Program-made: the position numbers and the translations under genes
Part shown: positions 10,984 to 16,134 of the stretch, piece after piece
How the letters are laid out: every line of letters begins with the position of its first letter
Position numbering within the stretch: position 1 is the stretch's first letter
DNA from: an uncultured bacterium
GTDB lineage: Bacteria; Lernaellota; Lernaellaia; Lernaellales; Lernaellaceae
Length of the DNA: 16,134 nt
Assembly (NCBI GenBank): GCA_964534375.1
Contig: CAZHPN010000145.1
Coordinates: 1 to 16,134, forward strand
Reading direction: 5' to 3'
Notes under the pieces: generated by a model
Seen by the model: the letters and a program-made list of their open reading frames with translations, nothing else
Database searches by the model: none
What the model was told of the DNA's origin: nothing

Positions 10984-11745
10984 ATGCCCGAGAACCTGAT
11001 CGTCATCATGGTCGTGGTCGTGGCCCTCGAAACCGTGATGCCGCTGGCGCCGGCGTTGTGGTGCTATTGGAAGACCGACGGCAGTTGGCGCTATTTCTTT
11101 TATGGTATGGCGACGTTCTTCATCTTTCAGGGGATTCTCCGCATCCCCGTCGTGTCGGCGGCGCAGATGCTGCTCGCCGGGTGGATTCACAAATACACGG
11201 TCGTGGAAGCGTCCTGGATGCTCATTCTCGCCGTCAGCGCGGGCTTCTTTGAAGAAGGCGGCCGGTACGTCGTTTTGCGGCACGTGCTGAAGCCGCCGCA
11301 TCGCTGGGAAAACGGCGTGATGTTCGGTCTCGGCCACGGCGCGATGGAAGTGCTGCTGATCGGCGTCGGCGGCCTCGTTGGCAGCCTCATCGTTCTCAAC
11401 ACCCCGACCGAAAACCTGCCGGCGTCCGTCGCGGCGGTCAAAGTGCAAATCGAGACCACGCCGCTCTACATGCCCCTGGTCAGCGGCTTCGAACGCGGGC
11501 CGGCGATCATTGCCCACGTCGCGTTGACGCTGCTGGTCCTGCGGGCGCTGCGCGACCCGGCCGGGCCGAAACGCTGGCTGCTGACCGCGATCGGCGCGCA
11601 CTCTCTGCTCAATTTCGTCACTGTCGGCGTCATGCGGGTCGTCAACGTTTTCGTCGCCGAGGGCCTGCTGGCGATCGTCGGCGGCTTCGCGCTTTGGTGG
11701 TTGCTGCGCGAGAGACGTTTTTCTTCGAAAAACTTGTTGACATAA
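10984..11745 (+). CDS. yhfC: YhfC-family (PrsW-related) glutamic-type intramembrane protease, 253 aa
   Basis: Multiple TM helices with AGFFEEGGRY (EExxR), FGLGHGAME, FER, AHVAL and AIGAH motifs; AAGGA RBS. Confidence 0.82.
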   Translation: MPENLIVIMVVVVALETVMPLAPALWCYWKTDGSWRYFFYGMATFFIFQGILRIPVVSAAQMLLAGWIHKYTVVEASWMLILAVSAGFFEEGGRYVVLRHVLKPPHRWENGVMFGLGHGAMEVLLIGVGGLVGSLIVLNTPTENLPASVAAVKVQIETTPLYMPLVSGFERGPAIIAHVALTLLVLRALRDPAGPKRWLLTAIGAHSLLNFVTVGVMRVVNVFVAEGLLAIVGGFALWWLLRERRFSSKNLLT

Positions 11746-11935: not shown

Positions 11936-11963
11936 CGCGGATTGCGGGATCGTTGCGTCGGCG

Positions 11964-11993
11964 TGGACTTTCCGGCGGCGCGCCTCCTATAAT
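11964..11993 (+). promoter_or_regulatory. Putative sigma70 promoter of the glycosyltransferase operon
   Basis: TGGACT (11964-11969), 18 nt, perfect TATAAT (11988-11993), followed by GAGG (12007-12010) and an in-frame TTG at 12016. Confidence 0.6.
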
Positions 11994-12015: not shown

Positions 12016-14247
12016 TTGCTGCACATTCCGCGCCCGATTTTGCTGACCTTGACCGGGTTTGCCGTGTTGGCCGTTTACCTCGCGGCCATGGCCCCCGGCG
12101 TGTTCTGGCGCGACAGCATGGAGTGCTGTTTCATCGGCCACCAACTCGACATCGGGCACCCGGCCGGCTCGCCCGCGTACTCGCTGCTCGCCAAGGCGCT
12201 GAGCTTCCTGCCGCTGGGCTCGCTCGCCTGGCGGGCCAATCTGCTGTGCGTGCTCGGGGCGTGGGCGGCCGCGATTTTGATGTGGTTTGCGGTTGCACGC
12301 TGGTTGGCGTTTTTGCGGCTGGCCGAGCCGCCCGACGCCGGGCTGCTCGCCGCGGCGGCAGCGCTGGCCTTCGCGTTTTCCGAGTCGTTGTGGGCATGGT
12401 CGGCGACGGCCAAAGTCTATTCGCTGCGGGCCGCCGCGCTGGCGGGTTTGCTCTGGCTCGCGGCGGAGGCGCTCGACGGCGGGCTCGACGACCCACGCTG
12501 GGCGGCGACGATCGGCCTGCTGCTCGGCGTCGCGGCCGGAGTGCACATCGTCTTCGTGCTCTACGCGCCGGCGTTCGGCGTCGCGCTGATTTTCGGCCCG
12601 CGTTGGCGCGTGCGGTGGCGCGGCGGGGCGCTGATGCTGCTCTTTTTCTTCGTCGGCTTTTCGGTGTACGCCTATCTGCCGGCGCGGGCGCTGCACGGCC
12701 TGCCGTACGATCAGGGCAATCCGCAAACGTGGCCGGCGTTCGTCGCGCACATCACCGGCCGGCAATACGCGCACATCATTCACCGCTTCCCCTGGGCGCG
12801 CATCCTGCACCACCTGCGCCTCGCCGCCGGCTGGACGTTCCGCGAAATCAACCCGCTGCTGGCCGCCGCGGCCGTCGCCGGCGCGATCGCGGTCGCCCGC
12901 CGCTCGCCGCGCGCGTTGGCGTTGATCGTTTTGGTTGCGCTCGGCCACCTGTACCTGTACATCAAGGATTGGGCGACGGCTTTCGGCTATATCACCATTT
13001 ATCAATTGACCGCGGTGCTCGGCGGTCTTGGCTTGGCCGCGCTCTGGCGGCCCGCGGCGAGACGGCTGGCGCCGTCGGCCGCGGCGCCGGCGCTGGCGCT
13101 CGTGGCGGCGGCGATGGGCGTCTGGGGCGCGGCCGGCCATGGGTCGGCCTGCTGCCGCAACGAGCACGACCTGGCGCAGCGGCACGGCGCCGGCGTGCTG
13201 GATTCGCTGCCGCTGAACGCGATTCTCGTCGGCTATTGGGACTGGACGGCGCACAATGTCTTTTTCCAACAGCTCATCGAACGACAGCGGCCCGACGTGC
13301 AATTCCTCCCGCGCGTCTGGCTGCTGTTTCCCGATGAACTCGCCCGCCGGCTGCCGGCGTGGGATTTACGCGGCTACGACCCGGCGACCCCGTTTGCCGC
13401 GCAGAAAATGCTGCTGGCGAACGATAAGGGCGGCGGCGTGTATTGGGACCTGGGCATGGAAGAGCAGCCGCTCGTCGAGCCGGCGGACCTGACGCCGCAC
13501 GGCGCCGTGTTTCGGCTGGGCGCCGCGCCGTGGGATGGCCGCGAAACCGCCGACGATCGGCGGCTGTGGCGCGACGTTTTCGGACCGATTCTGGCCAGTC
13601 CGCTCGTCGCGCCGCGCGGCTACGATTGGACCGCGGCCGACGTGTACGCCCACATTCTTCAGGCGCGCGCCGAACTGCACGCGCTCGGCGGCCGCTGGGA
13701 AGCGGCCGAACGCGATGCGGCGGCGGCGATTGCGGCGGAGCCCGATTTCGCCGAGTTTCGCGCGTTTCTCGGCAAGCTCTACCTGGCCCAAAATCGGTTG
13801 CCGGAGGCGGCGGAGAAAACCGCCGAGGCGGTGCGGCTCGACCCGTATTGCGCGCACTGCTGGGCGATCGAGGCGCAGGTCGCCCGACGGCGGCAGGACC
13901 CGGCGGGCGCGATCGACGATTACCTGGCGGCGCGCCGCTTGCAGTCGCTCGAGGCTGCCGACGCGGTCGACCTCGCGGGTTTGCTCTTCGCCGGCCGGCG
14001 CATCGACGAGATGTTCCAGATCATCGCCGAGACCGAGCGCAACCCGCTGGATGCGGCCGCCCAAGGGGCATTTGACGAATTGGCCGCACGGGCCTACGCC
14101 GCGCGCGGACAGTGCCCGCAGGCGCTCGCGCGCCTGACGCGCCTGCAGGCCGCCCACCCCGAGAGCGGGACGATCGCCGCGGTGCAACAGGCCTGTGGCG
14201 CGCCGGGCGAAAATCACATAAAGTCGGCGCCCGATGAGCCACATTGA
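12016..14247 (+). CDS. DUF2723 / TMEM260-like GT-C membrane glycosyltransferase with C-terminal TPR-like repeats (~743 aa)
   Basis: MAPGVFWRDSME...LDIGHPAGSPAYSLLAKALSFLPLGSLAWRANLL and FSESLWAWSATAKVYSL match the DUF2723 pattern (AP...DS.E...HP.G.P.Y...R.N; FS...W......EVY.L). Roughly 10 hydrophobic segments, LDSLPLNAIL, ERQRPDV, then TPR-like helices (AIAAEPDFAEFRAFLGKLY, AVRLDP). Start moved to TTG 12016 on RBS and promoter evidence. Confidence 0.8.
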   Translation: MLHIPRPILLTLTGFAVLAVYLAAMAPGVFWRDSMECCFIGHQLDIGHPAGSPAYSLLAKALSFLPLGSLAWRANLLCVLGAWAAAILMWFAVARWLAFLRLAEPPDAGLLAAAAALAFAFSESLWAWSATAKVYSLRAAALAGLLWLAAEALDGGLDDPRWAATIGLLLGVAAGVHIVFVLYAPAFGVALIFGPRWRVRWRGGALMLLFFFVGFSVYAYLPARALHGLPYDQGNPQTWPAFVAHITGRQYAHIIHRFPWARILHHLRLAAGWTFREINPLLAAAAVAGAIAVARRSPRALALIVLVALGHLYLYIKDWATAFGYITIYQLTAVLGGLGLAALWRPAARRLAPSAAAPALALVAAAMGVWGAAGHGSACCRNEHDLAQRHGAGVLDSLPLNAILVGYWDWTAHNVFFQQLIERQRPDVQFLPRVWLLFPDELARRLPAWDLRGYDPATPFAAQKMLLANDKGGGVYWDLGMEEQPLVEPADLTPHGAVFRLGAAPWDGRETADDRRLWRDVFGPILASPLVAPRGYDWTAADVYAHILQARAELHALGGRWEAAERDAAAAIAAEPDFAEFRAFLGKLYLAQNRLPEAAEKTAEAVRLDPYCAHCWAIEAQVARRRQDPAGAIDDYLAARRLQSLEAADAVDLAGLLFAGRRIDEMFQIIAETERNPLDAAAQGAFDELAARAYAARGQCPQALARLTRLQAAHPESGTIAAVQQACGAPGENHIKSAPDEPH

Positions 14248-14965
14248 ACTCAGCCTGGTTATTCCCGTTTACAACGAACGGGAGCGGATCGCCGACGGCC
14301 TGCGCCGCATCTTCGCGTACGTCGATGCCGGCGCACGCCCGACGGAAGTGGTGATCGTCGACGACGGCAGCCGCGACGGCACGGCGGACCTGGCGGCGGC
14401 CGAAATCGCCGGCCGGCGCGAGGCGCGGCTGATCCGCCTGCCGGCCAATCGCGGCAAAGGGTTCGCCGTGAAAACCGGCATGCTGGCGGCGACCGGCGCG
14501 GTGCGGCTTTTTACCGATATCGACCTTTCGGTGTCGATCGAAACGGCCGACCCGTTCTGCGAAATGTGCCGTGAAGCAGACGCGGTCATCGGGACGCGCA
14601 AGACGGCCGTCAGCCAGGTGACGGTGCGGCAGCCGCGCCGGCGCGAGATGCTGGGCGAGGTTTTTCGCCAATTCACGTTGCGGTTTTTGACGCCGGGCCT
14701 GACGGACATCACGTGCGGCTTCAAGGCGTTTCGCGCCGCCGCCGCCGAGCGGATCTTCGCCGCCAGCCGGATCGACCGCTGGAGCTTCGACGCGGAGATT
14801 CTCTTTCTGGCGTTGCGTTGGGGCTTGACGGTGCGGGAAATTCCGGTCGAATGGCGCAACAGTCCGGCGTCGAAGGTGCGGTTGTGGGTGGATTTGCCGC
14901 GCAGCGCGGTGGATTTGCTGCGCATTCGCGCGGCCTGGTTGCTAGGGAGGTATCGCGAGGCATGA
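14234..14965 (+). CDS. GT2 glycosyltransferase, dolichyl-phosphate beta-glucosyltransferase (ALG5/DPG-synthase)-like, 243 aa
   Basis: VIPVYNE, VDDGSRDGT, NRGKGFAVKTGMLAATG, FTDIDLS (DxD), IGTR, DITCGFKAF, WSFDAE, EIPVEW; 14-bp overlap with the upstream gene. Confidence 0.85.
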   Translation: MSHIELSLVIPVYNERERIADGLRRIFAYVDAGARPTEVVIVDDGSRDGTADLAAAEIAGRREARLIRLPANRGKGFAVKTGMLAATGAVRLFTDIDLSVSIETADPFCEMCREADAVIGTRKTAVSQVTVRQPRRREMLGEVFRQFTLRFLTPGLTDITCGFKAFRAAAAERIFAASRIDRWSFDAEILFLALRWGLTVREIPVEWRNSPASKVRLWVDLPRSAVDLLRIRAAWLLGRYREA

Positions 14966-15651
14966 AGCGGCTTGTTCTGACGGTGACCTACAACGAACGC
15001 GGCAACATCGGCGCGCTGACCGCCGCCGTGCGCGCGCTCGGCTACGACATGTTGGTGGTCGACGATCGCGGCGCCGACGACACGGCCGGTCTGGTGCGCG
15101 AGTTCGCGGCGGCCGATCCGCAGGTGCATCTGATCGCGCGCGAGGGCAAACTCGGTTACGCCTCGGCTTCGCGCGACGGCCTGCGGTGGGCGCTCGACCA
15201 AGGCTACGAACAGATCGCGCAACTCGACGCCGACGGCAGTCATCCGCCGGCCCTATTGCCGGTGATGTTTCGCGCGCTCGACGAGGCCGACCTGTCGATC
15301 GGCTCGCGGTACGTGCTCGGCGGCCAGATGCCGGGGCTGACCTGGTTTCGCCGGTTGATCTCGCGCCTCGCCGGCGATTACCTGCGCTGGATGCTGCGCC
15401 TGCCGATCGCCGATCCGACCTCCGGCTTCCGCGCCTGGCGGCCGGAGTTCCTCGCGCGCGTGCTGCCCCTGGCCGCGACCAGCGAAGGCTTCGCGTTCCT
15501 GTACGAAATGGCGTTTTACGTGGTGCGCGCGGGCGCCCGCATCCGCGAAATCCCCATGGTCTTCGAAAACCGCCGCGCCGGACAATCGAAGATGTCGCTG
15601 AAGATCGCCCGCGAGGCGTTCGCCATGGCGCGCCGCCTGCGGCGCGTTTGA
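14962..15651 (+). CDS. GT2 glycosyltransferase, polyprenol-monophosphomannose synthase (Ppm1/DPM1)-like, 229 aa
   Basis: ATGA overlap at 14962-14965 with GAGG RBS. TYNERGNI, VVDD, GKLGYASA, QLDADGSHPP, IGSRYVLGG, DPTSGFRAWR, EIPMVFENRRAGQSKMS. The track start at 14713 is too far upstream. Confidence 0.88.
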   Translation: MKRLVLTVTYNERGNIGALTAAVRALGYDMLVVDDRGADDTAGLVREFAAADPQVHLIAREGKLGYASASRDGLRWALDQGYEQIAQLDADGSHPPALLPVMFRALDEADLSIGSRYVLGGQMPGLTWFRRLISRLAGDYLRWMLRLPIADPTSGFRAWRPEFLARVLPLAATSEGFAFLYEMAFYVVRAGARIREIPMVFENRRAGQSKMSLKIAREAFAMARRLRRV

Positions 15652-15785: not shown

Positions 15786-15817
15786 CCCGAGTCCCGAGTC
15801 CCGAGTCCCGAATCCCG
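15786..15817 (+). repeat. Heptamer tandem repeat CCCGART, ~4.5 copies
   Basis: CCCGAGT CCCGAGT CCCGAGT CCCGAAT CCCG. Confidence 0.85.
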
Positions 15818-15911: not shown

Positions 15912-16134
15912 CGGAATCCCGTACCCGGAATCCCGAATCCCGAACCCGGTCCCCGGAACCCGGACCCCGGAACCCGGACCCCGGAACCCGGATCCCGGAC
16001 CCCGAATCCCGAATCCCGAACCCGGTCCCCGGAACCCGGACCCCGGAACCCGGACCCCGGAACCCGGATCCCGGACCCCGAATCCCGAATCCCGAACCCG
16101 GTCCCCGGAACCCGGACCCCGGAACCCGGACCCC
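15912..16134 (+). repeat. CCCG-core heptamer array organised as a 76-bp higher-order tandem repeat (~2.7 copies, truncated by the window end)
   Basis: Unit = CCCGGTC CCCGGAA CCCGGAC CCCGGAA CCCGGAC CCCGGAA CCCGGAT CCCGGAC CCCGAAT CCCGAAT CCCGAA; CCCGGTC recurs at 15945, 16021 and 16097 (period 76). Confidence 0.92.

Follow-up and report, generated by a model that had tools for sequence, protein, structure and literature searches.

Three genes at the 3' end of a contig from an uncultured bacterium of the phylum Lernaellota (GenBank assembly GCA_964534375.1, contig CAZHPN010000145.1) encode a large membrane protein that sequence homology assigns to the GT-C type of glycosyltransferases, referred to here as GT-C, and two family 2 glycosyltransferases (GT2), GT2A and GT2B. 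The window analyzed is the whole contig of 16,134 bp, and the genome to which it belongs comprises 6.3 Mb in 381 contigs and is 94% complete. Judged by its sequence and by its residues, GT-C is a bacterial member of the TMEM260 family. It most likely functions as a TMEM260-like enzyme in lipid-sugar-dependent periplasmic O-glycosylation, for which type IV pilins are the best-supported acceptor. For the complete proposal, namely that the module is a polyprenyl-phosphate-sugar-dependent periplasmic O-glycosylation system that acts on type IV pilins and has here been moved away from pilA, we consider the chances to be about even.

All three genes lie on the same strand. GT-C (12016..14247, plus strand) reads as a protein of 743 aa from a TTG at 12016 to a TGA stop at 14245-14247; its open reading frame (ORF) opens at 11953, and the TTG is a plausible start, the orthologs beginning to align at residues 6-17 of the version that starts there. 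GT2A (14234..14965, plus strand) runs from an ATG at 14234 to a TGA stop and has 243 aa, and GT2B (14962..15651, plus strand) starts with an ATG at 14962 and has 229 aa. The ORF coordinates bear out the overlaps that a first-pass annotation of the DNA had described, 14 bp between the frames of GT-C and GT2A and an ATGA shared by GT2A and GT2B, and these overlaps suggest that the three genes are translationally coupled. Chance does not explain the arrangement, since GT-C and GT2A are also paired in 15 of the phylum's 16 other genomes.

Relation of GT-C to human TMEM260

The activity of TMEM260 as a protein O-mannosyltransferase came to light only in 2023; the human enzyme belongs to CAZy family GT117, and a malformation syndrome of the heart and kidney results when it is lost. 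GT-C matched the Pfam family PF11028 (TMEM260-like, DUF2723) at 1.8e-23, with 83.7 bits against a cut-off of 24.2, and a six-frame search of its own genome placed the core of the match at 12112..12606 on the plus strand (2.1e-24, 88.1 bits). When GT-C was compared with the solved structure of human TMEM260 (PDB 9rql), residues 16-450 aligned with residues 35-485 at an E-value of 1.6e-22. The homology to the human endoplasmic reticulum enzyme (PDB 9rql, 9rqm and 9rqn) extends through the membrane part into the first portion of the Rossmann-like domain, although GT-C is bacterial and the identity is only about 20-25%. The ESM Atlas holds the exact GT-C sequence with a model of predicted template modeling score (pTM) 0.83, and the clusters nearest to it, by features and by structure, are all bacterial PF11028 families.

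The order of the parts is also shared. In GT-C, an N-terminal multi-pass membrane part, with at least six hydrophobic segments in residues 1-370, is followed by the region aligned to the Rossmann-like domain of TMEM260 and then by a tail resembling tetratricopeptide repeats (TPRs), so that the GT-C part, the luminal or periplasmic domain and the TPR-like part succeed one another as in the human protein. The available text of the cryo-electron microscopy study describes TMEM260 as a protein of eleven membrane helices with a Rossmann-like domain on the luminal side and a TPR domain (bioRxiv 10.64898/2026.03.17.711096).

The same text places D52 and H67 in the donor site, R264 and Y267 in the donor loop and R355 on helix 10, and names D441 of the Rossmann-like domain as the base that activates the acceptor threonine (bioRxiv 10.64898/2026.03.17.711096). 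We took the residue equivalences from the HMMER alignment of GT-C with 9rql, in which the chain numbering is the native numbering. The donor-site residues D52 and H67 correspond to D33 and H48 of GT-C, which lie in a first extracytoplasmic loop with WRDSME and GHPAGSP motifs (D33, E36, H48). The donor-loop Y267 corresponds to Y251, R264 falls on G248 with R249 adjoining it in the pairwise alignment, and the acceptor-activating D441 corresponds to D409. In an alignment of 72 rows of bacterial homologs, D33 was conserved in 71, H48 in all 72, Y251 in 58 (with Phe in 10 more) and D409 in 66. With the E-value given above and these key residues kept, the resemblance to TMEM260 noted earlier stands, and the large protein is a true TMEM260 homolog. 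As for TMEM260, a lipid-phosphate monosaccharide donor is expected for GT-C, with the difference that it would be a bacterial polyprenyl-phosphate sugar supplied by the enzymes encoded next door.

The TPR-like repeats (13648..14086, plus strand; about residues 545-690) are less well defined at the level of Pfam, where TPR_16 (7e-5) and TPR_19 (1.9e-4) were below threshold. The profile assignments proposed earlier were thus confirmed for PF11028 and, twice, for PF00535, and were not confirmed by Pfam for the TPRs. Residues 548-645 matched the TPR region of OGT in the PDB at 2.2e-7, consensus TPR designs matched as well, the tail matched NCBIfam PrsT at 4.8e-8, and the GT-C orthologs in the phylum matched TPR families at 1e-9 to 1e-12. 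By homology with TMEM260, the tail would be a periplasmic, acceptor-binding part. The first-pass annotation had the TPRs recruit folded substrates, and this is not supported by the human enzyme, whose TPR domain, according to the available text, grips an extended, unfolded peptide and not a folded domain (bioRxiv 10.64898/2026.03.17.711096).

The GT2 enzymes and their pairing with GT-C

Both GT2s matched PF00535 (GT2A at 1.2e-23, GT2B at 1.2e-18), in agreement with their earlier family assignment, and they share 26% identity with each other. Residues 1-218 of GT2B aligned with the catalytic domain of the Pyrococcus dolichyl-phosphate-mannose synthase (DPMS; PDB 5mlz) at 1.1e-21, with the DAD..HPP, GSRYV.GG and DP.SGF motifs in register. 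The matches of GT2A in the PDB were the GtrB protein sll0501 (1.2e-9), ArnC (1.7e-9) and DPMS (3.5e-9), and its DID aligned to the DAD of GtrB. The resemblance to polyprenyl-phosphate sugar synthases noted in the first pass therefore holds for both enzymes, GT2B being of the DPM1/DPMS type and GT2A like GtrB, ArnC and DPMS. The NCBIfam matches of the GT2s were likewise all polyprenyl- or dolichyl-phosphate glycosyltransferases, namely PpgS, a haloarchaeal dolichyl-phosphate hexose transferase, ArnC and AglJ, of which the first three were the best for GT2A. The best of these scores, 53 bits for GT2A and 51.6 bits for GT2B, fell far short of cut-offs of 370 and 325, respectively, as did all the others of theirs; for this reason the sugar cannot be named for either enzyme, and 'ALG5-like', the first-pass label of GT2A, is at most provisional. 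GT2A is probably a polyprenyl-phosphate sugar synthase that makes the donor for GT-C, since it is GtrB/ArnC/DPMS-like and a conserved partner of GT-C, and GT2B is probably a second polyprenyl-phosphate hexose synthase.

No membrane helix was found in GT2A or GT2B, whose maximum 19-residue hydropathy was 1.16 and 1.23, respectively. The match of GT2B to the DPM1/Ppm1-type synthases takes in their catalytic domain and its DAD motif. The archaeal enzyme continues into four membrane helices at its C-terminus, which GT2B does not have, and in this GT2B resembles the helix-less DPM1 forms. Such forms need a membrane partner, as human DPM1 does with DPM3. A GT2 donor maker paired with a GT-C enzyme acting outside the cytoplasm is also found in GtrA/GtrB/GtrC, CsbB/GtcA/YfhO and ArnC/ArnE-F/ArnT; in the available texts, these three-component systems are described as a polyprenyl-phosphate-sugar GT2 together with a GT-C enzyme that transfers the sugar outside the cytoplasm (PMC11194591; PMC11127046; PMC5836110). 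In contrast to the module studied here, GtrABC, CsbB-YfhO and ArnC-ArnT act on glycans or lipids and their GT2s have membrane helices, whereas GT2A and GT2B have none and the GT-C cluster has no flippase gene.

We compared the locus across 17 species genomes of the phylum, the own genome (G000) and 16 others; the name that one homolog bears at its source, 'Candidatus Lernaella stagnicola', points to Lernaellota. An ortholog of GT-C was present in all 17. GT2A was located directly behind it in 15 of the 16 other genomes, being absent from G009 and split in two pieces in G008, and the pair spans four families of the phylum. GT2B, by comparison, adjoins the cluster in only 4 of the 16 (G013, G014, G016 and G001). 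Orthologs of more than 50% identity were observed only in G013, G014 and G016, the adjacent copy in G001 having 41%, and elsewhere in the phylum the GT2B paralogs are only 34-43% identical and lie at other places. The conserved core is GT-C with GT2A, and GT2B is a lineage-specific add-on. Neighborhood conservation thus upholds one half of the earlier annotation, the coupling of GT-C to a probable donor synthase, and not the other, since a GT2B that is adjacent in 4 of 16 genomes cannot make two donors a core feature. In the DUF2723 family at large, GT2 pairing is not general: when the fetched flanks were compared with GT2A and GT2B at E<=1e-5, a match turned up at 5 of 80 loci from genomes, two of which belong to Lernaellota, and at 9 of 80 from metagenomes. 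A role of GT2B as partner of a YfhO-like GT-C was considered and rejected, as G010 has YfhO without GT2B, and G016, G000 and G001 have GT2B without YfhO.

These data bear on the possibility that the three genes are neighbors without a shared pathway, the GT2s making donors for other GT-C enzymes of the genome, which we regard as highly unlikely. Candidates for such other partners do exist, as the genome has 11 YfhO-like GT-C matches and 5 DPM1-like GT2 matches (E<=1e-15), some of them side by side. Set against them are the overlapping reading frames, the retention of the GT-C/GT2A pair in 15 of 16 genomes and four families, and the finding that a polyprenyl-phosphate-type GT2 follows GT-C in sister lineages too. 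The YfhO-like and DPM1-like genes are on contigs C195, C200, C53, C1, C214, C193 and C18 of the own genome (for example, C195:3031-3528 beside C195:4720-9486), which has an unusually rich set of lipid-sugar-dependent transferases.

It is barely credible, in our estimate, that folded IPT/TIG or Ig-like domains are O-mannosylated in the manner of TMEM260, with two donors providing two sugars or chain extension. GT-C does belong to the right family, and in the own genome two synthase-like GT2s are coupled to it. The expected substrates were not found, however: in the own genome, at 94% completeness, a search for the TIG/IPT family (PF01833) gave 0 matches, and because no IPT/TIG domain is encoded there, the human substrate class is not supported, the gene context pointing to pilins instead. 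The binding of unfolded segments by TMEM260, as reported in the available text, and the fact that 12 of the 16 others have no GT2B in the cluster argue in the same direction.

A second, distinct DUF2723 paralog is listed in 15 of the 17 phylum genomes; G009 has one DUF2723 match, and the two matches in G011 are pieces of the ortholog. The paralog of the own genome, a DUF2723/TPR gene (L003, contig C208, 6260-8203), is 31% identical to GT-C. Within C208 2706-8203, a long ORF ends in a 4-bp overlap with this gene. The C-terminal 490 residues of the ORF are multi-pass membrane sequence and are conserved (47-55% identity) in G016, G010, G012 and G014, where they likewise lie upstream of the paralog. 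The long ORF matched no Pfam family and may encode another membrane glycosyltransferase. In family f3 (G007, G004, G008 and G005; loci L114-L116 and L118), the GT-C ortholog and GT2A lie beside a family 4 glycosyltransferase (GT4) and a GT2 of 317-359 aa. In G004, G007 and G008, a GT2 of 220-234 aa and the DUF2723 paralog are also found within 6-8 kb, and in G004 and G007 a TPR protein of 580 aa as well, so that these genomes have a larger glycosylation island with two TMEM260-like enzymes. The paralog of G005 lies on a different contig.

Linkage to pilin genes and the likely acceptor

In G010, G013 and G014, one strand carries, in this order, a sigma-54 response regulator, a type IV pilin, a YfhO-like GT-C, the DUF2723 ortholog and GT2A. 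The YfhO-like gene and the ortholog overlap by 4 bp in G010 and G014, and in G013 and G014, not in G010, GT2A is followed by GT2B and then by an FGE-like protein. G016 has the same order of regulator, pilin, ortholog and GT2A without the YfhO-like gene and with GT2B and the FGE-like protein. The pilins of G010, G013 and G014 are type IV pilins of 116-130 aa with a class III signal, MRNKGFTLIELM..., and the own genome encodes three orthologous pilins at 62-65% identity, two behind the regulator on contig C32 and one on contig C133. For building pili, the own genome also encodes a prepilin peptidase, two secretins and ATPases of the T2SSE family (12 matches), and a pilin acceptor is thus available in it. 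The link of the module to a pilin gene is broken in the own genome, in G015 and in families f2-f4.

The FGE-like protein behind GT2B in G013, G016 and G014 (L120, L122, L126) is a small secreted protein with an FGE-sulfatase domain and an Asp-rich linker, and in G007 (L114) a longer FGE-like gene overlaps the start of GT-C. A join of the window contig to C133, which begins with an FGE-like gene and carries a pilin, was considered and rejected, the C133 FGE-like protein being only 21-24% identical to those behind GT2B in G013, G014 and G016.

Outside the phylum, we examined 158 DUF2723 loci, 78 from genomes and 80 from metagenomes, and counted as pilin-adjacent those with a pilin gene that ends at most 400 nt upstream on the same strand; gene calls in the fetched loci came from a simple ORF picker, by which some genes were missed or misplaced. 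Eight of the 158 were pilin-adjacent, three genome loci (L006, L022 and L025) and five metagenome loci (L144, L151, L163, L170 and L195), most of them in pilB/pilC/pilS/pilR contexts. The neighbors are pilC-pilS-pilR-pilin in L144, pilB-pilC-regulator-pilin in L025, secretin-pilB-pilC and three pilins in L022, and pilB-pilT-pilC-pilin in L195. Among NCBIfam families, the pilins came closest to the Myxococcus-type PilA model, with scores short of its cut-off. Other long ORFs of these loci served as a control: an upstream pilin was observed for 5 of 128 complete GT-C ORFs versus 2 of 578 other ORFs of at least 300 aa (Fisher p 0.003).

The pilin-adjacent loci include the closest outside relatives of GT-C. 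A FastTree phylogeny of 172 sequences grouped 16 phylum orthologs with L006, L144, L151, L163 and L170 in a clade of 21 rows with a support of 98, the phylum's DUF2723 paralogs forming a separate clade, and all five outside members are directly behind a pilin gene. A quick IQ-TREE analysis (LG+C20, 56 rows) recovered the same 21-row clade with a support of 99 in the SH-like approximate likelihood ratio test (SH-aLRT); because long branches are present, the position of each sequence inside the clade is uncertain. In the phylum of L006, 26 of 301 genomes sampled had a GT-C homolog at E<=1e-25, and a pilin was upstream at 13 of 28 homolog loci. These 13 were all among the 17 best matches, of which three others have less than 500 nt of upstream DNA and one has no pilin, while none of the 11 weaker matches had an upstream pilin.

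The donor synthase also recurs in the phylum of L006. In L255, L256, L257, L260 and L262, GT-C is directly followed by a GT2 of 316 aa with two C-terminal hydrophobic segments, and for the one searched, that of L257, the only PDB match was DPMS at 2e-11; in L263 an ORF of 649 aa lies between GT-C and the GT2. Behind the GT2, the pilin operons of this phylum carry either a GT4, a SIS-CBS protein (sugar-phosphate isomerase-like), an epimerase/dehydratase and an IspD-like cytidylyltransferase, or the asparagine synthase AsnB, as seen in a Pfam scan of 31 of the 102 ORFs called in 11 loci, and these extra genes suggest a special activated sugar. Taken together, these results reveal a recurring unit of a pilin, a DUF2723 GT-C and a polyprenyl-phosphate-type GT2, of which the module in the window is a pilin-detached form and hence a less direct example than the pilin-adjacent loci.

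The nearest described analogue by function is TfpW of Pseudomonas aeruginosa group IV, the likeness being drawn from the description of TfpW. In the available text, TfpW is a D-arabinofuranosyl transferase for pilin, of GT-C type, with an acidic motif in loop 1 and a C-terminal TPR; its gene is located immediately after pilA, and it uses a lipid-phosphate-linked monosaccharide made in the cytoplasm (bioRxiv 10.1101/2020.04.19.049825). By this description, GT-C would share with TfpW the enzyme type, the acidic motif in the first periplasmic loop, a TPR-like C-terminal tail and a lipid-linked monosaccharide donor, and relatives of the window GT-C are, like TfpW, encoded right behind a pilin gene. 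Unlike tfpW, the GT-C gene in the window is not next to pilA, and the described TfpW system differs further in its donor route, DprE1/DprE2 arabinose rather than a DPM1/GtrB-type GT2, and in that TfpW polymerises.

We favor a pilin as the likeliest acceptor because a pilin gene immediately precedes the genes of the closest relatives of GT-C, both in Lernaellota and beyond it. Several observations weigh against pilin glycosylation by the module. Over the 12 kb of the window ahead of GT-C there is no pilin gene, the neighbors being YhfC, MutY and Sir2, and behind GT2B the contig continues for 480 bp. The regulator-pilin-pilin locus on C32 of the own genome continues with an ammonium transporter and has no GT-C. 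Inside the phylum, the pilin link was observed in only 4 of 17 genomes, which are close kin (three genera of the one family f1), and in one of them, G016, a strong terminator-like hairpin with a 12-bp stem and a T run (L122, 11702-11729, minus strand) stands between the pilin gene and GT-C, so that the two need not share a transcript. The f3 ortholog, with a GT4, two GT2s, a TPR protein and a DUF2723 paralog around it and no pilin, also fits glycan assembly. Of the TMEM260 residues, R264 is one residue off in the pairwise alignment, in which R355 falls on I328 in a gappy stretch and is not kept. Finally, the window has no dedicated flippase gene (GtrA, MATE or SMR type), and the GtrA-type flippase family (PF04138) had 0 matches in the own genome, other flippase families not having been searched there. 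A terminator-like hairpin in the position seen in G016 is common after major pilin genes.

The detachment of the module from pilin genes in the own genome, in G015 and in all phylum genomes outside f1 would be accounted for if the system glycosylated many exported or membrane proteins, with pilins as one client at most, in the manner of the broad-spectrum PglL. The presence of the ortholog in all 17 genomes is what one would expect of such a housekeeping function, and the TMEM260 TPR, in the available description, reads a short extended peptide motif that could occur in many proteins. We nonetheless judge general O-glycosylation to be an unlikely, if serious, alternative: a pilin gene directly precedes all five clade members from outside the phylum and, in another phylum, 13 of the 17 best matches, and no other class of neighbor recurs.

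The acceptor could also be a glycan or lipid (lipopolysaccharide, exopolysaccharide or a wall polymer), as for ArnT/ArnC, GtrC/GtrB, YfhO/CsbB and Rv3779/PpgS, with the TPR tail docking to an assembly machine. PpgS and ArnC are among the best sub-threshold NCBIfam matches of GT2A, and the GT-C enzymes that partner them act on arabinogalactan and lipid A, respectively. The f3 island just mentioned, the GT4, SIS-CBS, epimerase and IspD-like genes of the sister-lineage operons, and the YfhO-like GT-C coupled to the ortholog in three relatives are all compatible with such an acceptor. On the other hand, D409, the equivalent of the base that activates the peptide threonine in TMEM260, is kept in 66 of 72 homologs, the sole characterised member of the family, as far as the available sources describe it, is a protein O-mannosyltransferase, and pilin adjacency recurs across phyla. 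A glycan or lipid acceptor is therefore rather improbable in our assessment.

For a pilin acceptor, we hypothesize the following reaction. At the cytoplasmic face, GT2A, and here also GT2B, would load a sugar from a nucleotide sugar onto polyprenyl phosphate, as their homology predicts, and a flippase would turn the lipid-linked sugar to the periplasmic side. By analogy with the residues of TMEM260, the membrane part of GT-C would bind the lipid-phosphate sugar through D33 and H48, its periplasmic lobe of Rossmann-like domain and TPRs would hold an extended stretch of the protein, and D409 would activate a Ser/Thr hydroxyl for transfer of the sugar. The acceptor protein would be a type IV pilin, the module having presumably been relocated from a regulator-pilin locus that is now on another contig.

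Surroundings of the module and its meaning

The window is G+C-rich (0.60-0.72). A consensus scan found a sigma-70-like promoter match ahead of GT-C (11964..11993, plus strand; TGGACT-18-TATAAT, 10/12), which is a weak lead only. In read collections, the stretch was present in five wetland metagenome DNA runs, and no RNA run was listed. A gene for a YhfC-family intramembrane metalloprotease (10984-11745) lies on the same strand 270 bp upstream of GT-C; it was not seen beside the GT-C ortholog in the relatives examined. At the other end of the window, an open-ended ORF of 881 aa (2-2647) has a complete carboxyl transferase domain at residues 394-879 (Pfam, 2.2e-193), and the approximately 390 residues ahead of this domain matched no Pfam family. 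Behind GT2B, arrays of a 7-nt unit (CCCGAGT; CCCGGAC-like) occupy 15786-15817 and 15912-16134, with a higher-order period of 76 nt and a 98% match, and reach the contig end; these arrays probably caused the assembly break after GT2B.

Bacterial relatives of TMEM260 are widespread, more than 420 of about 600 candidate stretches encoding one in each of two collection scans. In agreement with the first-pass remark that bacterial DUF2723 proteins are largely uncharacterised, our literature search found no publication on the function of bacterial DUF2723/TMEM260 proteins or on a pilin-linked module, and no bacterial relative with an assigned substrate; in its available text, Larsen et al. (2023) refers only to 'distant homologs in bacteria' (PMC10214176).

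We propose, tentatively and at somewhat less than even probability, that the bacterial TMEM260 family may be a third, undescribed class of pilin O-glycosyltransferases beside PglL/TfpO and TfpW. The animal O-mannosyltransferase would then be descended from a pilin-decorating lineage, and the module of this phylum would have become independent of pilA and, with a second synthase, might place two different sugars on pilins or on further clients. The pilin gene context and the donor synthase next door give a simple hypothesis that is testable in a heterologous host, and the module gives a bacterial system in which the split active site reported for the human enzyme can readily be studied. The sugars on pilins influence how the pilus works, how phages attack and what properties the surface has, and pilin glycosylation would be relevant to the biology of these poorly known wetland bacteria.

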